From NCBI GenBank assembly GCA_049513715.1, contig JBEKVV010000001.1, forward strand, positions 1 to 64,000: a stretch of 64,000 nt of DNA. The letters run 5' to 3'. The DNA comes from Candidatus Bathyarchaeia archaeon (GTDB taxonomy: Archaea > Thermoproteota > Bathyarchaeia > 40CM-2-53-6). Shown piece after piece: positions 7,557 through 51,242 of the stretch. The notes beneath the pieces are model-generated. The model did not search any database. It had not been told where the DNA came from and worked only from the letters and a program-made list of their open reading frames with translations. A program made the position numbers and the translations under genes. Within the stretch, counting starts at the first letter, position 1. Every line of letters starts with the position of its first letter.

Positions 7557-7973
7557 TTACTTGAATTTCTTCAGGGCCGCGTTGTCTTCGTTGAAGGTTT
7601 CCTCGAGGAAACCGAGGGCCGCTTTCTTGGTTGCTTCGTCGTTTAGTCCCTGCATTTTGAATTCTCCTGCGACCTCTACCTTGGTCTTGTCTCCCATCGG
7701 GGTATAGGTGTGGGTGTGTTTCGTTCCAACTTGGGGGCCTGCTAGGATTTCCATGTCGAAGCTTTTCGGCGGGTTAAAGGTGAACTTCGCTGTTCCCTTG
7801 TACGTTTTTCCGTCGGGGCCGGTCATCTCACTCTCCGCAACCATGTGTTTGTCGGATTGTTCAAGGATTTTTGAGAACCGGACCGATCGGTGTTCATGTG
7901 TTTGGTCATTCAGGAAACGCCATATCTTATCCACTGGGGCGTCGAAAACGCCTTCGTCTTTTAGGTATACCAT
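7557..7973 (-). CDS. SRPBCC/START-fold protein
   Basis: FDAPVDKIW N-terminal motif, C-terminal helix; ATG at 7973. Confidence 0.75.
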   Translation of the reverse strand: MVYLKDEGVFDAPVDKIWRFLNDQTHEHRSVRFSKILEQSDKHMVAESEMTGPDGKTYKGTAKFTFNPPKSFDMEILAGPQVGTKHTHTYTPMGDKTKVEVAGEFKMQGLNDEATKKAALGFLEETFNEDNAALKKFK

Positions 7974-8134
7974 AACAATCACATTCCATACGTCATAATG
8001 CTATTATTAAACATAAAAAACTTCGCGGATGACCCGGCTCAGAAGCGCTCTGAAGGGTACCCCCACACATCGGGTCTACCCAATCTTGTGGCCCTTACCC
8101 GCATCCAGTGGTAGCTGCCACCCTGACTGGCAGG

Positions 8135-11829: not shown

Positions 11830-13254
11830 TCATTCACGGTATTTGTAGTGGCCTTCGAAAATGTCCTTGGTCTTGCGGGTTTCTTCTTCGTAGTATTCGT
11901 CGTCGTATGCGGGTGTTGTGAGTGATGCGGAGAAGTCGTAGATGCCGGACCATTTGAGGTCGACGATTCGTCGGATTCTCTTCGCGACATCGGGAACTGG
12001 GATGCGTTCGATTAGTGGCTCAAAGAACCCGACTATGATGAGCTTCTTGGCTTCGTCTTCTGATAGGCCTCGGGCCATGAGGTAGAAGATCTGCTCGTCG
12101 TTGATCTGTGAGACCGAGGCTGAGTGGGTGGCTTTCACCTCGTTCGTCTCAATCTCCAACCCAGGAATAGCGTCAGCCAAGGCATCTTTGCCTAGAATCA
12201 TGCCGTGCTCGGCTAGGTAGGCGCGTGAGTTCTTTGCGGTCTTCTCGATTCGAATCATGCCCTTGAACAACGACCTAGCCTTGTCTTTCACCACACCCTT
12301 TGAGATGGCGTGGCCGCTCGTGTTCTCACCAATATGAGTAATGTTTGACACCGCGTCGAACCTTTGCGTCCCCGCTCCGAAGACAACCTCCACGTTCTCA
12401 GACGACGCTCCACGCCCTGTCATCGCGCTCTCAAGCCGCGACCTCGTATACGCACCACCAAGCAGCCCAGACGACCAAACAATCTTACTATCGCGTTCCC
12501 CGATGGATTTCTTGTTCATGAAGATGTTGACGTTAGGGGCAAGGTTGTTGATGCTCGCGTACGTAACCTCCGCTCCGTCACGCAGGTGTACCTCGGAGAG
12601 GCCACTGTACGCTGATTTTTTCACTTGGCCAGTCAACCGTGTTGAGTAGAGCTCCTCTAGAACTGTGAACTTACTTCTGGGCTCTGCCATGACCAAGTTC
12701 TGCGCGAAGAGTCCGCCGCCTTCTGAATCCAGTATCGTCACTTGCCTAAATGGGAGGGTCACCTCGATGCCCTTAGGGACATGCAGGAAGATTCCTGAAG
12801 TGAAGAGAGCGTTATTCAAAGCCGCGAACTTGTCAGCTTCCGGCAGAATTGCCTTCTCCAGGAAATAGCGCCTAAAGTACTCAGGGTCCTTGCGAATCAC
12901 TGTCCCAATATCGGTGAAGGCCAAGCCCTCTTTCTGAAGAGGAGCTGGTACTTCGGGTAGAATGGTTTTCGATTCAATTTGGTAAATCGTGAGCGCCCTT
13001 TCTGTTTTGAGTTTGCTTACGATGTCTTCAGTGGTCGTCTTTGTAGGCTCGGGTAACTTGAGGTTGAGTGATTCTAGGTCAAGGCCTGTGAGGTCGACGT
13101 ATTTGGTGTAAAGGCTTGATAGCTCGGGTGCTAGGTTATGGAAGAGGTTTAGGGATTTGATTCGAAATTCCTGCAGCCACTCGGGTTCCTGCCTGGATTT
13201 AGAGAGCGTTCTAACGAACTCTTCGCTCGCTTGGGTCAGTGTCAACTCAGACAT
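11830..13254 (-). CDS. sufD: Fe-S cluster assembly protein SufD (SufB/D family)
   Basis: DKFAALNNA, IPGLEIETNEVKATHSASV, FYLMARG; follows sufB. Confidence 0.92.
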   Translation of the reverse strand: MSELTLTQASEEFVRTLSKSRQEPEWLQEFRIKSLNLFHNLAPELSSLYTKYVDLTGLDLESLNLKLPEPTKTTTEDIVSKLKTERALTIYQIESKTILPEVPAPLQKEGLAFTDIGTVIRKDPEYFRRYFLEKAILPEADKFAALNNALFTSGIFLHVPKGIEVTLPFRQVTILDSEGGGLFAQNLVMAEPRSKFTVLEELYSTRLTGQVKKSAYSGLSEVHLRDGAEVTYASINNLAPNVNIFMNKKSIGERDSKIVWSSGLLGGAYTRSRLESAMTGRGASSENVEVVFGAGTQRFDAVSNITHIGENTSGHAISKGVVKDKARSLFKGMIRIEKTAKNSRAYLAEHGMILGKDALADAIPGLEIETNEVKATHSASVSQINDEQIFYLMARGLSEDEAKKLIIVGFFEPLIERIPVPDVAKRIRRIVDLKWSGIYDFSASLTTPAYDDEYYEEETRKTKDIFEGHYKYRE

Positions 13255-13302: not shown

Positions 13303-14706
13303 TTAGCCGACTGAGCCGGCCATTTCCATCTGAATCAGCCTGTTCAGCTCGATCGCGTACTCCATCGGCAATTCCTTTGTGAACGGTTCCATGAACCCCA
13401 TGACTATCATGCTGAGTGCATCTTGCTCTGATAGCCCTCGGGACATCAGGTAGAAGAGTTGATCTTCGCCAATCTTGCCGACAGTGGCCTCGTGGGTTGT
13501 GGTGGCGTCGTCTTCGTTAATCTCATTGTACGGGTAAGTGTCAGTTCGTGAGTATTCATCAAGCAATAGCGCGTCACATCTTACCGTTGACTTGACGCCT
13601 TTTGCTCCTTTCGCTACATGCAATAATCCTCGGTAGGTTGTTCTGCCGCCATCCTTTGAAACTGATTTTGAGGTGATTCTGGAGGTTGTGTTGGGAGCAA
13701 GGTGGACAACTTTGCCGCCTGCGTCTTGGTGCTGGCCTTTGCCTGCGAATGCGACTGAGAGGATCTCGCCTTTCGCGCCTGGGCCGAGCAGGTAGATTGA
13801 GGGATATTTCATGGTGAGTTTGCTGCCGAGGTTGCCGTCCACCCATTCCACGGTGGCGTTCTCGTAAGCGTACGCACGCTTCGTGACGAGGTTGTAGACG
13901 TCGTTCGACCAGTTCTGGATTGTCGTGTATCGGACGTGGGCTCCCGCTTTTGCGATAATCTCAACAACAGCAGAATGCAATGAATCCGTAGAGTAGATTG
14001 GTGCTGTGCAGCCTTCTATGTAGTGAAGGCGGCTGTTCTTATCGGCTATGATGAGTGTCCGTTCGAATTGTCCCATGTTTTGCGTGTTGATTCTGAAGTA
14101 TGCTTGGAGTGGGACATCGACCGTAACCCCTTCGGGAACATAGATGAAGCTTCCACCGCTCCAAACGGCACTGTTCAGCGCCGCGAACTTGTTGTCCTCT
14201 GGAGGTACAACGGTGCTAAAATATTTCTTGAAAATCTCAGGGTACTCCCTAAGCGCGGTGTCTGTGTCAGTGAATATGATGCCTTTCTTCGCGAGGTCTT
14301 CCCTCAGGCTGTGGTAGACCACTTCAGACTCGTATTGGGCTCCGACTCCACCGAGGAATTTCCGCTCGGCTTCAGGAATCCCCAGCTTGTCGAACGTATC
14401 CTTGATGTAGCTTGGAACGTCGTCCCATGAGCGGCTTTTTCGTTCGGTAGAGCTTGCGTAGTAAACCATCTCGTCAAACTTCAGTGTATTTAGGTCGCCG
14501 CCCCATTGGGGTAGTTTACGCTTCATGAAATGATCGTATGAGCGTAGCCTGAACTGACGCATCCAGTCAGGTTCCTTCTTGATTCTGGAGATATGCTCGA
14601 CAACTTCCCTGGTTAGGCCCTTCGGGAACTTGTACTCGTAGCCCGCGTCGGAGTCTCGGAAATTGTACTTGGTATAGTCTATGTCCAGAACCTGTTTGGT
14701 TGCCAT
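13303..14706 (-). CDS. sufB: Fe-S cluster assembly protein SufB
   Basis: [44 protein letters not shown]. Confidence 0.98.
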
Positions 14707-14727
14707 CGGTTGTCGAGGCCTCCTCAG

Positions 14728-14743
14728 TATGACATACGTATTA
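14728..14743. promoter_or_regulatory. Putative operator (TATGAC-ATAC-GTATTA) overlapping an internal sufB promoter
   Basis: Same motif and near-identical offset from the start codon (22 bp) as the copy before the Cys-rich HTH gene (23 bp). Confidence 0.55.
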
Positions 14744-14752
14744 ATGTTCCTT

Positions 14753-15550
14753 TCAATTCGCTACAGGCGTAGCTTTGTGCTCAATCCACTCGTAGCCTTT
14801 CTCCTCAAGCATCTGAGCCAGTTCTGGCCCGCCTGACTGGAAGATTTTTCCATCCGCCATAATGTGAACGAATTGTGGTTTGATGTACTGAAGGATCCGC
14901 TGGTAGTGAGTAATCAGCAATACACCCATCTTCGGTCCCGCCATCTTCGCCACCACTTCCGCAACCTTCCGCACCGCATCAATATCTAACCCAGAATCAG
15001 TTTCGTCCATGATTGCGATCGCGGGCTCTAGAATCGCCATCTGGAGAACTTCCGCGCGTTTCTTCTCCCCACCAGAGAACCCTTCGTTCAAGTAGCGTTT
15101 CGAGAACGCTGGGTCCATGTCAACCTCCTTCAACTTCTCCTCCAGTTTCTTCTTGAAAGCGAGGGCTGAGATCATCTCGCCGCCAACGCCTTTCTCGTCA
15201 GGCTTCTGCGTTGCGTTCCCGTGCACTGACCTGTATGCGGAGCGAAGGAATTGGGCGAGTGGTACTCCTGAGATTTCAAGCGGGTACTGGAAGGCAAGGA
15301 AGAGGCCTTTCTTTGCGCGAAGGTCTGGAGATAGGCCGACGATGCTTTCTCCGTTAACGAGGATGTCGCCGCTGTCAACCTTGTATTTCGGGTGGCCCAT
15401 CAGCGTGTTCGCTAAAGTGCTCTTTCCGGAGCCGTTGGGTCCCATAATGGCATGAATTTCACCTTGGGAGACTTTCAGGTTCACGCCTTTCAAAATCTGT
15501 TTAGATTCAATACTAACGTGTAGGTCTTTGATTTCCAACGTGGTCGGCAT
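14753..15550 (-). CDS. sufC: Fe-S cluster assembly ABC ATPase SufC
   Basis: [37 protein letters not shown]. Confidence 0.98.
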
Positions 15551-15595
15551 TATTCTTCCCTAGTGGAATGGATTTGCGCGCTAACACTCTTTTGT

Positions 15596-15622
15596 GTTTA
15601 TATAAGTATGACGTACGTTATG
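15596..15622 (-). promoter_or_regulatory. sufC promoter: TATA box plus adjacent palindrome TATGAC-GTAC-GTTATG
   Basis: Minus-strand CTTATATAAAC at 15596-15606; palindrome at 15607-15622. Confidence 0.65.
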
Positions 15623-15628
15623 AAAATC

Positions 15629-15739
15629 TCAGAACCCTACTGGTAACGGAGACGACTTTCGGTAGGGGCCGCGCTTCCGCTTGCGGGCTTTATTTCTCAG
15701 ATGAATTTCCCGCTCGATCTCATCATCAACCTCAGGCAT
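15629..15739 (-). CDS. Small basic protein (36 aa) with RKRKRGPYRKS motif
   Basis: Manual translation MPEVDDEIEREIHLRNKARKRKRGPYRKSSPLPVGF; GGAG upstream; below the ORF-track cutoff. Confidence 0.55.
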   Translation of the reverse strand: MPEVDDEIEREIHLRNKARKRKRGPYRKSSPLPVGF

Positions 15740-15789
15740 TTTGACCAGGCTCCACTAAGCGCAAACCGCAATTTCAATGTTCAAGAACA

Positions 15790-16269
15790 CTACTTTGCTT
15801 TCTGGTCCTTGTTCACGGGCTCATAGGTTACGCCCGTAGAACCCTTGTCGCCATGGAAGACTGAGTGGTATTCGCCGATGTTCGTTGCTGGCCTTGAGAG
15901 GCGTTCTGGGCTCCACAGAAGCAAATCACGATCGTACTCAGCCAACTCGTAATCGGGCGTGTAATCCAACGCTCCAGTCGGACAGTAGTCTGTGCAAAAA
16001 TGACAAAAACAGCAGCGAGCGTACCAGTATTGGGGGAAACGGCCTTCAGGGTTCTGTGGGTACTCTTTCTTTTCTGTGGGCGGGACGAGTGTGATGCATT
16101 TTTCCGGGCAGATCCAGGCGCAGATGCCGCAACCTGTGCACTTGGCCATGTAGAGTTGGTGGCGTCCGCGGAATCCCTTGGGAAGCTGGAGCTTCTGGTA
16201 GGGATATTTCATTGTGAGTGTGTGCTTGAACATGGTCTTCACGCCCTCGTACATTTCGCTAAGTATCAT
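15790..16269 (-). CDS. nuoI: Complex I-like subunit I (2x[4Fe-4S])
   Basis: T..YP, FRGRH, CTGCGICAWICP and CCFCHFCTDYCP. Confidence 0.95.
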   Translation of the reverse strand: MILSEMYEGVKTMFKHTLTMKYPYQKLQLPKGFRGRHQLYMAKCTGCGICAWICPEKCITLVPPTEKKEYPQNPEGRFPQYWYARCCFCHFCTDYCPTGALDYTPDYELAEYDRDLLLWSPERLSRPATNIGEYHSVFHGDKGSTGVTYEPVNKDQKAK

Positions 16270-16288
16270 GGCTCTCCATGGCCTCCGT

Positions 16289-17437
16289 TCAGCGGTCTGC
16301 CTCTACGGGCCAGTAGTCCAAACTGCCGTAGATAATTGGCATGTCGGCCACGTGGACGTTGCGGATTAGGATTGGGAGTGCGATTAGGTTTCTGAAGGAG
16401 CCGTTCATTATTTTGACGCGGTATGGTTTGTCGCTGTTGTCACCCATAACCATCACAGTATACTCCCCCCGGGATGATTCCACGCGGCCTACTGCTTCAC
16501 CTTCAGGTGCAACCAATGGTGCCTTTCGGGCTATGGGGCCAATCGGAATCTTCTCAAGGGCTTGTCTGATGATTTTGATGCTTTGTTTCATTTCGTCGAA
16601 TCTTACCATGAAGCGTGCGTACGAGTCTCCTTCTTCGTAGGTGGGGATTTCGAAATCCAGGTCGGCGTAGGCTCCGTAAGGTTCCACCTTTCGCACGTCG
16701 TACTTGACGCCTGAGGCCCGGAGCACGGGGCCTGTGACCCCCAGTTTGATAGCGTCCTCTCGTTTCAATACGCCGATTCCTTTCGCGCGGGCTATGACGA
16801 GTGGGTTGTGGAAAAAGATGCGGGTATACTCGACGAGTCTCTTTTCGAAGTAGTCGAGTAGTTTGGCGAGTTTCCCCTCGAACCCTGATGGGAGGTCGCG
16901 CCTCGGCCCGCCGGGTGGGAGGAACGAGTACGTTAGGCGAGCACCCGTCAACATTTCAGCGAGTTCGATGAAGAGGTCGCGGTCGGCGAAGGCCCACATG
17001 AAAATGGTTGTGTGCCCTGAGAAGACGCCTGCGTTAATCGCTAACCAATAGAGGTGGCTCATGATGCGGTTCATTTCGGCGGCGATGGTTGCGATGTATT
17101 GGCCTCTTGGTGGAACCACCACGCCTTGCAGCTCTTCGATTGGCAGCACGTAGGCCCAGTTCAAGTGAATCGCATCAATGATGCATGGCCTCTCGAGATG
17201 GGGAATGTTGCTGACGTAGTTGCGGTACTCTGCGATCTTTTCGCAGCCCCGGTGAACGTACCCGATGTCGGGGTCCACGCTGAGTATGTAATCCCCATCG
17301 ACCCGAATCAGTAAACGGACATGGCCCGAGCCGGGGTGTTGCGGGCCCACGGACACGTCTAGTGTTGAAGGTTCATTGGTTTTGGAGATTGATATGACTG
17401 GGGTTGGCGGTTTCTCCTGTGCCGGAGGTGTTGTCAA
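16289..17437 (-). CDS. nuoD: Complex I-like subunit D
   Basis: GPQHPGSGH, GYVHRG.EK, GVTGPVLRASG, YWPVEADR; TTG start overlapping the nuoC stop. Confidence 0.95.
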   Translation of the reverse strand: MTTPPAQEKPPTPVISISKTNEPSTLDVSVGPQHPGSGHVRLLIRVDGDYILSVDPDIGYVHRGCEKIAEYRNYVSNIPHLERPCIIDAIHLNWAYVLPIEELQGVVVPPRGQYIATIAAEMNRIMSHLYWLAINAGVFSGHTTIFMWAFADRDLFIELAEMLTGARLTYSFLPPGGPRRDLPSGFEGKLAKLLDYFEKRLVEYTRIFFHNPLVIARAKGIGVLKREDAIKLGVTGPVLRASGVKYDVRKVEPYGAYADLDFEIPTYEEGDSYARFMVRFDEMKQSIKIIRQALEKIPIGPIARKAPLVAPEGEAVGRVESSRGEYTVMVMGDNSDKPYRVKIMNGSFRNLIALPILIRNVHVADMPIIYGSLDYWPVEADR

Positions 17438-17928
17438 CGTTGGCCCATCTCCGGGAACTTGAGGTCTTTCAACATAGGAGGGGGCCCGTCCCAATTATCA
17501 AGCGTCAAGAGCTTCCTCAGGTCTGGGTGCCCTTCGAAATTGACGCCAAACATTTCGAAGGTTTCGCGTTCATGGAAATGTGCGCTCTCCCAAACCGAGA
17601 CAACTGATTGAATTGCGGGATTTTCTCGAGGTAATTCCGCTTTCAGAATCACAAGCAGATCCTGCAGTTCCGGTTTTGAGAATGTACCCGTGAAGTAGAG
17701 GACTTCTATTTTCTTGTGCGTTGGGAAATCGATGCCCGCGACTCCCTTCAAATGGTCGAAGCCGAGTTCGTCGCGCATGAACCCTGCAATTTCCAGGACT
17801 TTGTCTTTGTCGAACGTAATCGACACGCGGCCTGCGCGGTCTATCTTGTTCTCCTTGATGGCTTCGGGGAAGCGAGCTTTCAGTTGGCTGATGATGCCTT
17901 CTTCCCTAGACAGCGCAACTTGGCTCAC
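17434..17928 (-). CDS. nuoC: Complex I-like subunit C
   Basis: A.FHERETFEMFGVNFEGHPDLRKLL. Confidence 0.95.
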   Translation of the reverse strand: MSQVALSREEGIISQLKARFPEAIKENKIDRAGRVSITFDKDKVLEIAGFMRDELGFDHLKGVAGIDFPTHKKIEVLYFTGTFSKPELQDLLVILKAELPRENPAIQSVVSVWESAHFHERETFEMFGVNFEGHPDLRKLLTLDNWDGPPPMLKDLKFPEMGQR

Positions 17929-18446
17929 TAGGCGAATACCTCTTCTCTGCGAATCTTCTCACGCAGCTTCACAATTGCGCTTAGGAGTGCCTCCGGCCTG
18001 GGGGGGCATCCTGGGACGTAGACATCTATCGGGAAGATCTTGTGAACGTCATTTACGATGCTGTAGGAGTCGTGGAAGAGGCCGCCCGAGCAGGCGCAGT
18101 CACCCATCGCTATAACGTAGCGTGGGTGGGGCATTTGCTCGTAGACGATTTTGAGGCGCTTGGCCATCTTCTTCGTAACCGTGCCCTCCACAATTAGGAG
18201 GTCGCATTGCCTGAGTCCACCAGCCACGGCTTGCATTCCAAACCTTTCCGGATCCAAGCGTGGGCCCATCATGGCGCCGAATTCCGCGCTGCAGCATGCG
18301 GTTGTGATATGAACCGGCCAGAGGGCATACATGCGGCTCCAGTTGATGAGGTATTTGACGGGGCCCGTACCTGTGATGGCCTGTACCACTTCACTCATTT
18401 TGCCAAGCCACGCTCCCGCAAAATCTTGCAGAAACCCTTGGCTCAT
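17928..18446 (-). CDS. nuoB: Complex I-like subunit B
   Basis: TACCSAE, MGDCACSGG, DVYVPGCPPRPE. Confidence 0.96.
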   Translation of the reverse strand: MSQGFLQDFAGAWLGKMSEVVQAITGTGPVKYLINWSRMYALWPVHITTACCSAEFGAMMGPRLDPERFGMQAVAGGLRQCDLLIVEGTVTKKMAKRLKIVYEQMPHPRYVIAMGDCACSGGLFHDSYSIVNDVHKIFPIDVYVPGCPPRPEALLSAIVKLREKIRREEVFA

Positions 18447-18593
18447 GGGCCTGAATCACGCTCCTATGGTCGGTTGATTACGGACACGGGAATAACCTAT
18501 CATTGAAAAAGTTTGTCAGGTGGCATTTGGGCCTGTCTCAGCAACAACAGACAAACCCAGCGCTCCTGGAGCATCTAGCGGATGAGCTTGCCT

Positions 18594-19052
18594 CTATTGA
18601 AGTCCTTTGAGCGCCGCTTCCACTTCGGCAGTATGCACCGAGACGTCGACCTTAGGAAACACTTTCACGATTTTGCCCTTCTTGTCTATGATGAAGGTAA
18701 CTCGGTTCGTTGATGTTCCGGTATCCTTGATGACGCCGTATGCGGTGGCGATTCTCTTGTTTTTGTCGCTGATAAGGGGGAAGGGGAGTTCATATTTCTC
18801 CATGAATCTTCTGTGGTCTTCGATGCTGTCCAAGCTGACTCCGATGATTTCGGCGCCCATTCTTCTTAGCGGTTCTATATTATCCCTGAAACTACAAGCC
18901 TCTCTCGTGCAACCTGGAGTATCGTCCTTCGGATAGAAGTAGAGAACGACGTTCTTCTTTCCGATGAAGTCCCTGAGGCCGAGGCGTGATCCGTCCGACG
19001 TTGGGCCTTCAAAATCTGGGGCCTGTTCTCCGACTTTGACTTTGATTTCCAT
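18594..19052 (-). CDS. bcp: Peroxiredoxin, BCP/PrxQ family
   Basis: LYFYPKDDTPGCTREACSFRD. Confidence 0.95.
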   Translation of the reverse strand: MEIKVKVGEQAPDFEGPTSDGSRLGLRDFIGKKNVVLYFYPKDDTPGCTREACSFRDNIEPLRRMGAEIIGVSLDSIEDHRRFMEKYELPFPLISDKNKRIATAYGVIKDTGTSTNRVTFIIDKKGKIVKVFPKVDVSVHTAEVEAALKGLQ

Positions 19053-19093
19053 TGGCGAGACCGGCCCCAATGTACGCGCATGGGCGGATTAGG

Positions 19094-19477
19094 TTATTGC
19101 TCGCAGACGTGGCAGGAGTTCACATCAATCCCAGGTTCGAGGCGTTTGTGCAAGTCGCACATGTACCTGTTCTTTCTGACGTATTCGCAGGCAGCCTCGA
19201 TTCTGCTCATGACCTCGACTGGTTTCACTTTCCTTGATGATACCATTTTGGCAATGCTGGTTGTGGCTTCATCGATCTCCTTGATCCCGTTGAGTCGAAT
19301 TGCTGCGCCACGTTTCTCGTGCAGGTATTTGCTCACGGCGGGTTGCGTGACTCCGAGAAGCTGAGCTGCTTCCTGCTGGGTCATTCCGTGGTCATCGACA
19401 AGTCTCTTTACAATGAGTGCCCGAAGTGCAGGAATGACGGACTTGGATGTCAACTCTTCAGGCAGTATCATGGGCAT
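19094..19477 (-). CDS. HTH transcriptional regulator (COG2522-like) with C-terminal Cys/His cluster
   Basis: MTQQEAAQLLGVTQPAVSKYL HTH; C-x9-C-x2-H-x11-C-x2-C tail. Confidence 0.85.
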   Translation of the reverse strand: MPMILPEELTSKSVIPALRALIVKRLVDDHGMTQQEAAQLLGVTQPAVSKYLHEKRGAAIRLNGIKEIDEATTSIAKMVSSRKVKPVEVMSRIEAACEYVRKNRYMCDLHKRLEPGIDVNSCHVCEQ

Positions 19478-19499
19478 GAGGAAATTCCACTTCTACGAG

Positions 19500-19520
19500 T
19501 ATGACGCAGGTTATATAAAC
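19500..19520 (-). promoter_or_regulatory. Promoter of HTH-bcp with palindrome TATGAC-GCAG-GTTATA overlapping the TATA box
   Basis: Palindrome 19500-19515; TTATATAAAC 19511-19520. Confidence 0.65.
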
Positions 19521-51092: not shown

Positions 51093-51242
51093 CTGTTAGC
51101 ATCGGACAAGTGCTTGAGAACGATGCCAGAGGGAAAGTGGCTTGCCTTCAAGCAAGATTCTTAGTGTTCTTAGTGAGGCGAGCTCCAACGCTGGCTTCTC
51201 GCTAGGTAGAATAGCAACTATATGACATATGTACTTTGATCT

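Follow-up and report, generated by a model that had tools for sequence, protein, structure and literature searches.

A widespread archaeal HTH regulator and its putative operator: a candidate control system for iron-sulfur cluster assembly in a genus of Bathyarchaeia

Known regulators of iron-sulfur metabolism

The Fe-S (iron-sulfur) cluster of the bacterial regulator IscR, an Rrf2-family protein of E. coli, is held by three cysteines and one histidine, proteins of the DtxR/IdeR family repress iron uptake genes, and ThiR, an archaeal thiamine regulator, consists of a helix-turn-helix (HTH) domain fused to a ThiN domain. IscR is described, in the accessible part of its source, as an autoregulated regulator of Fe-S biogenesis, the operator binding of which is set by the state of its cluster (PMC12594620). 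SufR (COG2345) of cyanobacteria and actinobacteria is presented, in the accessible part of another source, as a repressor of suf that carries a cysteine domain at its C-terminus and has a palindrome for an operator, its features being a winged HTH, a GRP AT-hook, the ligands C179/C192/E195/C220 and a CAAC-N6-GTTG site; the same text proposes putative archaeal SufR homologues on the basis of gene position (bioRxiv 10.64898/2025.12.26.696629). Searches of the literature on Fe-S regulation yielded bacterial work on IscR and SufR and, for archaea, only those putative homologues. A literature search, which did not reach the primary ThiR papers, found no description of an archaeal control system such as the one proposed here, which bears on how the making of Fe-S clusters is adjusted to need in archaea.

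Putative operators in the suf region

The window, a 64-kb stretch of DNA from a 2.79-Mb genome that is 99% complete, contains suf genes and a gene for a 127-aa HTH protein (hereafter the regulator). Its relevant features are as follows, operators 1 to 3 being identified by pattern match and by a matrix in relatives, and the TATA-like boxes, which mark putative promoters, by reading of the sequence.

7557..7973, minus strand: SRPBCC (polyketide cyclase-like) gene (PF10604), its ATG 8 bp from operator 4
7982..7997, no strand: probable operator 4, CATTCC-ATAC-GTCATA, before the SRPBCC gene (matrix score 17.3)
11830..13254, minus strand: sufD (TIGR01981, 244 bits, cut-off 222)
13303..14706, minus strand: sufB (TIGR01980, 723 bits, cut-off 346)
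14728..14743, no strand: operator 3, TATGAC-ATAC-GTATTA, in the 46-bp sufC-sufB gap
14753..15550, minus strand: sufC, Fe-S assembly ATPase (TIGR01978, 334.7 bits, cut-off 212.8)
15598..15605, minus strand: TATA-like box TTATATAA of sufC
15607..15622, no strand: operator 2, TATGAC-GTAC-GTTATG, at the sufC promoter
18594..19052, minus strand: bcp peroxiredoxin gene (AhpC-TSA profile match)
19094..19477, minus strand: regulator gene, 127 aa (PF01381, 28.9 bits, cut-off 23)
19500..19515, no strand: operator 1, TATGAC-GCAG-GTTATA, at the regulator's own promoter
19512..19519, minus strand: TATA-like box TTTATATA of the regulator-bcp unit

An earlier note on this DNA had reported three sites of the form TATGAC-N4-GTWWT, and a pattern search of the window finds exact matches at 14728, 15607 and 19500 only, against an expectation of 0.07 that overstates the significance because the pattern was picked after the fact; none of 100 shuffles reaches three, and the whole 2.79-Mb genome contains nine. 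Operator 1 shares 4 bp with the regulator's TATA-like box, operator 2 lies 1 bp upstream of the sufC TATA-like box and over the BRE position, and operator 3 overlaps a TATA-like element in the sufC-sufB gap, which may contain an internal sufB promoter. The gap measures 46 bp as reported (sufC ends at 14753, sufB starts at 14706), and bcp is directly downstream of the regulator gene, after 41 bp. The sites are close to start codons as claimed, with 22 and 21 intervening bases for operators 1 and 3, the 23 and 22 given previously being coordinate differences; likewise the site at 7982-7997 is present before the SRPBCC gene, but as a full site and not the weaker half-site it was taken for. A sigma-70 scan returned background counts only, the sigma-70 model being ill-suited to archaeal promoters.

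Conservation of the sites and extent of the regulon

Sites in related genomes were called at a score of at least 10 with a matrix trained solely on 28 regulator, sufC and sufB sites of relatives. Among genomes of the genus, which are kin and not independent samples, the regulator promoter has a site in 20/21 loci, with the TATA-like box offset by -3 or -4 from the site in all 20, which fits the autoregulation suggested earlier; the exception (L020) has a 5-base spacer, and the regulator gene of the same genome is frameshifted. The sufC promoter has a site in 24/24 loci (22 genus genomes and two of other genera), typically with the TATA-like consensus cTTAAta immediately after it, the site being just downstream of the TATA-like box in the two other genera. 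The sufB promoter has a site in all 22 genus genomes, and a TATA-like sequence starts at offset -2 in 21 of them. The bcp gene follows on the regulator's strand after a gap of 18-49 bp in 20/21 genus loci and is likely co-transcribed with it. Upstream of the SRPBCC gene, three of six close homologues have scores of 8.3, 13.6 and 16.6 and the other three have none, nor does a site appear in the six distant paralogues examined; this gene may be a variable member of the regulon, and its site a probable operator.

The earlier proposal that sufCBD and bcp are controlled together fits these results, but the predicted regulon is wider. As an independent test, the matrix also finds conserved sites upstream of genes for a rhodanese (19/19), a ZIP transporter (12/12) and an FTR1 iron permease (3/4), and upstream of sufS-sufU-sod (10/23), in which sod is located after sufS-sufU. 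Ten matches in the genome score at least 17, compared with a mean of 0.5 (maximum 3) for 20 column-permuted palindromic matrices. The palindrome has the consensus YATDAC-N4-GTHATR and overlaps or adjoins the TATA-like boxes of regulator-bcp, sufC, sufB, rhodanese, ZIP, FTR1 and often sufS-sufU-sod.

Bases of the left arm are often part of the TATA-like box as well, as they would be if the sites were a core-promoter feature or chance occurrences and not operators. However, the position of the palindrome varies: at sufC it lies upstream of the box, and elsewhere it overlaps the box or lies downstream. The GTCATA arm, away from the box, is conserved too, and control promoters, including neighbouring ones, largely lack the site (bcp 0/20, nuoB 1/21, hypB 0/5, hemC 0/7). 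Such an explanation has a negligible probability, being largely refuted by the matrix scan, the site positions and the count of palindromes in the protein family given below.

The regulon is not uniform: among 21 scored sufS loci of the genus, ten have a clear site, two have a degenerate one, four have a TATA-like box of their own without a site, and the remaining five are 36-54 bp behind a Rieske gene with neither box nor site. The idea of a natural experiment, in which the site is gained whenever sufS leaves the suf operon, holds only partly on these counts, and was set aside. A site at hypB/hypC was rejected as unconserved (0/5 and 0/4 relatives). The second-best genome match (C6:81919) and C6:80433, before TetR and radical SAM genes, were left out because the form TATAACGAACGTTAAA before the radical SAM gene, invariant in 13/17 relatives (two variants, two none), departs from the consensus and could be an operator of the TetR protein itself. 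Matches at C1:571473, C5:97940 and C3:146770 have no clear downstream gene and are unexplained or due to chance.

Palindrome and protein family across archaea

The HTH family is found in 266 of the 301 Thermoproteota genomes searched. A near-perfect palindrome occurs within 170 bp upstream of 45/92 family genes, where 0.46 would be expected, and is missing from 41/92, including all 14 rows of family f20. All 38 sites with a 4-base spacer (N4) fall within one clade of 73 rows (SH-aLRT 95), and six of the seven with a 3-base spacer (N3) fall outside it, which takes two spacer changes on a quick tree of 134 columns; spacer length tracks the protein clade. Among further loci, N3 sites are found in 13/61 (0.33 expected), including Hadarchaeota, Thorarchaeota and Aenigmatarchaeota, the palindrome accompanying the family through unrelated neighbourhoods in several phyla. 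At suf promoters the motif is far above background in the regulator's family. Neither of the two outcomes named earlier as refuting on sequence grounds, a motif unconserved before orthologues or one no commoner than background at suf promoters, is observed. Control of suf by the motif is nevertheless lineage-limited and does not extend over TACK as a whole: phylum-wide, 6/50 sufC promoters have it.

These associations make it very probable that the 127-aa HTH protein binds the palindrome. Were the HTH gene merely a target of some other regulator, the candidates would include the products of three true DtxR-family genes elsewhere in the genome, which carry PF02742, and DtxR regulons typically include iron importers. 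Yet none of the three genes has a palindrome site (best scores 3.6, 2.8 and 5.6), and the palindrome travels with the HTH family across phyla, with a spacer that follows the family tree, which leaves another regulator very unlikely. Neither Fur nor a match to TIGR02702 (SufR) was found in the 99%-complete genome.

Family genes have neighbours that include sufC, sufS/iscS, hcp, flavodiiron-type and hemerythrin-domain genes, and those of the N3 clade are near genes for PALP (cysteine-synthase-like), hexapeptide (serine-acetyltransferase-like), ThiI, ThiF, sulfite reductase and PAPS reductase proteins. The bacterial regulators CymR and CstR respond to sulfur through cysteine or persulfide, and the same repressor and operator might here sense sulfur (cysteine, or persulfide on cysteines), suf being only one among several targets that consume sulfur; the conservation of the rhodanese site, among the best of all targets, and the N3 neighbourhoods agree with this. 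This signal is unlikely, however, as the sulfur genes adjoin members of the N3 clade and not of the regulator's own, and FTR1 and ZIP are not sulfur genes.

The regulator protein and its possible signal

The HTH_3 match (PF01381) at residues 24-56, above the gathering cut-off of 23, marks an XRE-type HTH, and the modelled body is all-helical with no wing strands. Seven Pfam hits at E 0.001 include neither Rrf2 (PF02082) nor a zinc-finger family for the tail, and a profile search of the genome for Rrf2 gave one match below the cut-off, at another gene, and none above it; with the features of SufR also absent, the regulator belongs, as had been supposed, to a family other than those of SufR and IscR. 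The earlier note labels the protein COG2522-like; homologues are named "predicted transcriptional regulator" in JGI, and the ESM Atlas yields only unnamed archaeal HTH clusters. Foldseek returned weak top rows, mostly XRE proteins (C.BclI, ClgR), and no row at E 0.001 or better; fold searches with the whole model including the tail yielded no clear counterpart (best Z 5.2, rmsd 4.6, 88 aligned). Structure searches found no solved relative beyond generic HTH proteins, and a weak match does not signify a new fold.

The C-terminus reads C97-x9-C107-x2-H110-x11-C122-x2-C125, exactly as previously described, but the cysteine-rich tail can be narrowed to a conserved core of C107, H110, C122 and C125 (118, 107, 119 and 117 of 119 family rows), C97 being kept in just 81. 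The tail may resemble a CHC2-type zinc finger. Two family members (L102 and L103) have no tail, yet both head a sufS-iscS-iscU operon with an N3 site. ThiN-bearing proteins of ~315 aa (L135, L146, L155, L159, L191, L199) match the family HMM at their N-terminus and keep the Cys3His set alongside another sensor domain, which suits a structural zinc site and weakens the case for an Fe-S ligand.

A homodimer is predicted (0.75 against 0.00 for the best control, a mark reached by 20/30 known dimers and 1/23 single chains), with contacts agreeing to at least 76% and pLDDT of at least 88; a 4Fe-4S cluster was included in the prediction, unscored. E7, E94 and C97 are predicted to meet at the dimer axis (expected errors 7-7' 0.9 A, 94-6' 1.3 A, 97-7' 1.4 A). 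At these positions 58/119 family rows have an interface set of three cysteines (C7/C94/C97), where this regulator has E/E/C; C7 and C94 covary (58 both, 59 neither, 2 mixed), a pattern rejected as independent evidence because it reflects only two changes on the tree. A structural zinc in the tail, with E7/E94/C97 binding Fe(II) or Mn(II) in the manner of Fur or DtxR, would account for the meeting of these residues across the two-fold axis in the model, for their invariance in 120/120 close homologues and for the iron importers among the targets. Those homologues are, however, all at least 82% identical, the axis varies among genome loci (E/E/S in L016, E/Q/C in L018), and two other genera run the same regulon with a C/C/C form, making a sensor at the axis distinctly unlikely.

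Since the sites touch TATA-like boxes, repression is likely, and given binding it probably occurs by blocking TBP/TFB, although operator 2 lies over the BRE position, a place that an activator could occupy too. Under the proposed mechanism the dimeric protein would occupy the palindrome at target promoters and repress them as long as its metal site is filled, probably by an Fe-S cluster; failure of the iron-sulfur supply would release the repressor from DNA, and a shortage of clusters would elicit more iron import, persulfide sulfur, scaffold, and peroxide and superoxide defence, in a negative feedback loop as with IscR and SufR. Given binding and repression, the odds that the signal is an Fe-S cluster bound by the C-terminal Cys3His residues are somewhat better than even; this signal is favoured on regulon content, because iron importers and sulfur donors are co-regulated and Fe-S and redox genes are among the family's neighbours.

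Alternatively, the tail could be a zinc thiol-redox switch on the same repressor, oxidation freeing both zinc and DNA, whereupon bcp, sod and suf would be induced as a regulon against oxidative stress. The presence of bcp in the regulator's probable transcription unit in 20/21 genus loci, the position of sod after sufS-sufU, the likeness of C-x2-H...C-x2-C to zinc sites and the persistence of the tail in ThiN fusions are consistent with such a switch. It is nonetheless rather unlikely, as FTR1 (3/4) and ZIP (12/12) bear the site, and more iron import under peroxide stress would presumably do harm because of Fenton chemistry.

The reading as a whole, a 127-aa HTH repressor acting at the palindrome with Fe-S status as its signal, stands at about even chances, and the overall interpretation of the earlier note is supported. 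Against it weigh the tail kept in ThiN fusions but absent from L102 and L103, the E/E/C axis of this regulator, the many family genes and sufC promoters that have no motif, the sufS boxes with no site and the BRE position of operator 2. Should it be true, an archaeal regulator family that is very widespread but unannotated would acquire a function, and its motif could serve to read the Fe-S and sulfur regulons of uncultured lineages. With a protein, a 16-bp operator, targets and particular residues now named, the question can be tested on one recombinant 127-aa protein. More tentatively, the HTH family may be the archaeal counterpart of bacterial Rrf2: a scaffold for repressors that sense Fe-S clusters, with two metal sites that are modular, Cys3His at the C-terminus and Cys3 at the dimer axis. 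Its clades would then divide into sulfur-assimilation regulators (3-base spacer) and Fe-S/redox regulators (4-base spacer), the latter acting on suf, hcp and flavodiiron genes. One member, that of this Bathyarchaeia genus with its axis changed to Glu/Glu/Cys, would place iron import, the transfer of sulfur, cluster assembly and defence against oxidants in a single regulon; ThiR would be derived from within the family by the gain of a thiamine sensor.

Comparison with known systems

By sequence, ThiR is the closest characterised relative of the regulator, which differs in having 127 aa and no ThiN domain (PF10120), in being followed by bcp, and in its predicted targets, which are Fe-S, sulfur and iron genes; no palindrome is found upstream of the ThiN fusions (0/6). 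Iron uptake genes as predicted targets of repression recall the DtxR/IdeR family, but a Pfam search finds no Fe_dep_repr_C domain (PF02742) in the regulator. SufR, as far as its source is accessible, is likewise a suf repressor with C-terminal cysteines and a palindromic operator, whereas the regulator has no GRP motif, its cysteines are spaced C-x9-C-x14-C-x2-C and not C-x12-C-x27-C, and its site is YATDAC-N4-GTHATR and not CAAC-N6-GTTG. Compared with IscR, the regulator has an XRE-type HTH, an all-helical body, a C-terminal C-x2-H-x11-C-x2-C and, by inference, an archaeal TATA box at its promoters; like IscR, it has a Cys3His ligand set, with cluster control of DNA binding as a prediction only, and putative operators at its own promoter and at those of Fe-S biogenesis genes.

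Three operators in one gene block

The pattern TATGAC-N4-GTWWT (N4, a four-base spacer) occurs in the window at 14728, 15607 and 19500, just as the earlier note had claimed, and nowhere else there; it has 9 matches genome-wide, and the 0.07 occurrences expected in the window from shuffles are not leaned on because the pattern was chosen after the sites were known. The source genome (99.4% complete, 8.8% contamination) has a single copy of the regulator gene, and homologues are assigned to Candidatus Bathyarchaeia.

Features of the window
14728-14743, operator in the sufC-sufB gap
15607-15622, operator before sufC
19500-19515, operator before the regulator gene
19094-19477, minus strand, HTH regulator gene (127 aa)
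minus strand throughout, bcp, nuoB-C-D-I, sufC, sufB and sufD (nuoC and nuoD named by sequence appearance only)
15790-18446, the four-gene nuoB-C-D-I block, between bcp and sufC

The operator is real and conserved. A palindrome stands upstream of the regulator orthologue in all 21 genus loci (with a 4-base spacer in 20 and a 5-base spacer in one, L020), so that the conservation proposed in the earlier note as a test was found; the site also stands before sufC in 24/24 loci (22 genus genomes and two other genera of the same taxonomic family) and between sufC and sufB in 22/22. These counts, which come from related genomes and are not independent trials, show purifying selection at the three sites. 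The site is retained at both promoters in those two other genera too, although there sufC and the regulator occupy separate contigs. Matrix scores at these sites are circular because the same three classes trained the matrix, and the raw sequences agree with them. Across the phylum, motif-based control of suf is patchy: among 80 genomes searched, 30 of which had no sufC match at threshold, the motif occurs at 6 of 50 sufC promoters, versus 0.24 expected, with none in the four genomes of family f20 or the two of family f34. The sufC promoters of three genomes of family f27 have a site with a 3-base spacer.

A conserved TATA-like element belongs to the nuoB-C-D-I block itself, which is without an operator in the source genome; nuoB adjoins the regulator locus in 21/21 genus loci, and nuoI precedes sufC in 21 of 22 genus genomes. 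In the relative G001 (L017 / L310:9518, G001:C5), the regulator is not followed by bcp, and nuoB has a site at its promoter (score 16.1), as in no other of the 21 genus loci; there nuoBCDI may have entered the regulon.

The wider regulon

A symmetric matrix built from 28 distinct sites, all from relatives, was then applied to the source genome. Ten places scored at least 17, where 20 palindromic matrices with permuted columns averaged 0.5 and never exceeded 3; 14 scored at least 15, versus 2.45 for the permuted matrices; three of the high-scoring places are the window sites. Other matches precede genes of classes absent from the training set.

Genes downstream of matrix matches in the source genome (contig and position), with the frequency of scores of at least 10 among relatives
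C1:144597, tandem rhodanese; 19/19 scorable gcvH-linked loci (two more too short)
C4:214018, ZIP transporter, then a cation-efflux gene; ZIP 12/12
C5:106276, FTR1 iron permease; 3/4
C4:198520, sufS-sufU-sod; sufS 10/23
C4:90080, aldehyde ferredoxin oxidoreductase; the only relative, of 5, with the gene
in the window, SRPBCC gene; 2/6 close homologues, a third at 8.3

Three unlinked rhodanese paralogues scored at most 5.6, and control promoters reached 10 in 0/20 cases for bcp, 1/21 for nuoB, 0/7 for hemC and 0/5 for hypB; the hyp genes were rejected as regulon members, their site not being conserved. Four genus genomes have a separate promoter-like box for sufS without a site, and three high matrix matches have no clear gene downstream, as does a weaker match in the window (51221-51236, score 12.9, TATGACATATGTACTT). 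Sites near a TetR-hemC-hemD block were set aside, as they may be operators of the TetR protein instead. The palindrome TATAACGAACGTTAAA (in the source genome at L056:1434 and L056:2920; G000:C6:80433 and 81919) stands in invariant form before a radical SAM gene in 13/17 relatives, before the adjacent TetR-hemC-hemD genes in the source genome and before the TetR gene in L271, possibly marking a separate TetR regulon for heme synthesis.

The FTR1 gene of the source genome (L061:1795-2693; G000:C5:106294-107192) is in two pieces, with a frameshift and a later stop, and its operator is intact; the gene is whole in three relatives, and the break is either an assembly error or a recent pseudogene. 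The sufS-sufU-sod genes lie on contig C4, apart from sufD, and several relatives have a Rieske ferredoxin gene and msrA between sufD and sufS (L306:1638-3476, L311:1901-2973). The regulated rhodanese has a GcvH-TusA fusion gene (L060:545-1207; G000:C1:143044-143706) as its tail-to-tail neighbour, a linkage present in 21/21 orthologous loci. The genome scan also brought up, as paired matches, a tandem duplication of ~980 bp containing the same 156-aa ORF twice (G000:C1:208154-208760 and 209133-209739). The 16-mer TATAACATATGCTAGA occurs five times, on either strand, outside long ORFs (G000:C1:124753, C2:9025, C2:417985, C5:25900, C6:1992), and probably represents the terminus of a repeated mobile element, not an operator.

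Position at promoters

The regulator gene (offset -3 or -4), sufB (-2) and the rhodanese, ZIP and FTR1 genes (-5) all have the site overlapping a TATA-like box; at sufS it lies a few bases after the box, and at sufC one base before it, over the BRE position. This variation rules out a core promoter element. Archaeal TBP and TFB bind the TATA box and the BRE, and overlap with their sites would imply repression. The geometry at sufC, taken alone, would allow activation as well; against this, the sufC site is downstream of the TATA-like box in the two other genera.

The palindrome and the HTH family

A family profile built from alignment A1 (119 rows) matched in 266 of 301 Thermoproteota genomes (440 matches). 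The 93 family genes examined are a biased sample, mostly the best-scoring of these matches thinned for close kin; among the 92 with enough upstream DNA, a near-perfect palindrome lies within 170 bp in 45 (38 N4 and 7 N3, the latter with a three-base spacer), a weaker one in 6 and none in 41, and shuffles give 0.46. The N4 sites all fall within one 73-row clade (SH-aLRT 95) and six of the seven N3 sites outside it, two changes of spacer length sufficing on a quick tree. In 61 further named loci, N3 sites occur in 13, versus 0.33 expected, from Hadarchaeota, Thorarchaeota, Aenigmatarchaeota and Bathyarchaeia; Methanobacteriales members have no palindrome within 170 bp. Since the motif tracks one gene family across unrelated neighbourhoods and shifts with its clades, the simplest reading is that it is the family's operator, and by this sequence evidence the adjacent HTH protein is very likely what binds the palindrome. 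Binding by another regulator is highly improbable: the source genome has no SufR, Fur or above-cut-off Rrf2 match, and its three DtxR-family genes are all without the site. Many members of the N4 clade have two tandem palindromes in the promoter region (L024:1431-1460, L025:892-921, L132, L134, L141, L182).

The regulator and its signal

Residues 24-56 of the regulator match HTH_3 above cut-off, and its predicted structure consists of helices only (pLDDT 95); structure searches brought up no clear relative among solved structures. Homodimer prediction scored 0.75 (best control 0.00), a mark reached by 20/30 known dimers and 1/23 single chains in a calibration unlike this job; at least 76% of contacts agree between runs, with pLDDT of at least 88. 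Within the Cys-rich tail described in the earlier note, C107/H110/C122/C125 form a near-invariant candidate metal site (118, 107 plus 9 Cys, 119 and 117 of 119 rows), whereas the note's first Cys, C97, belongs instead to a candidate axis site: positions 7, 94 and 97, which come together across the axis of the modelled dimer, are C/C/C in 58/119 rows and E/E/C in the regulator and 120/120 close homologues, the loss requiring only two changes on the tree. Direct Fe(II) sensing at this axis site is quite unlikely. A cluster put into the dimer model was unscored and is uninformative on the ligand; a Zn-thiol redox switch is a doubtful alternative.

The regulator is a predicted repressor of an Fe-S supply regulon, and that it acts by sensing an Fe-S cluster is about an even chance. 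In favour, genes for iron import, sulfur mobilisation and cluster assembly share a single operator; family members that keep the tail and lack the triad adjoin sufC (L181) and hcp (L174, L175, L177), and others adjoin flavodiiron-type and hemerythrin-domain genes, all of the kind controlled by bacterial Fe-S sensors. However, ThiN-fused relatives retain the tail, two tail-less members still head sufS-iscS-iscU, and the N3 clade lies among cysteine, sulfite/PAPS reductase, ThiI and ThiF genes, neighbours that would suit sulfur sensing, itself unlikely.

Comparison with known systems

The family is undescribed in the searchable literature: neither the regulator nor the motif was found in the sources searched, though an earlier description may exist in the two ThiR papers and their supplements, in RegPrecise or in subscription journals. 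The sole mention of COG2522 found is a passing annotation in an excerpt of PMC12856327, and SufR, IscR and DtxR are unmentioned in that of PMC8351635; the comparison also cites excerpts of PMC12594620, PMC10746257, PMC2946596 and PMC12029414. Archaeal SufR homologues, of a different family from the regulator, are proposed upstream of suf operons in the available part of bioRxiv 10.64898/2025.12.26.696629. A stand-alone member of the HTH family has a ThiR-like HTH-ThiN gene as its immediate neighbour in the taxonomic family f27 (L135, L146, L155, L159, L191). ThiR is the nearest characterised kin, but the regulator is without its ThiN domain. The regulator would work like IscR and SufR, yet it has the defining sequence features of neither, in keeping with the earlier note's view of an analogue from a different family.
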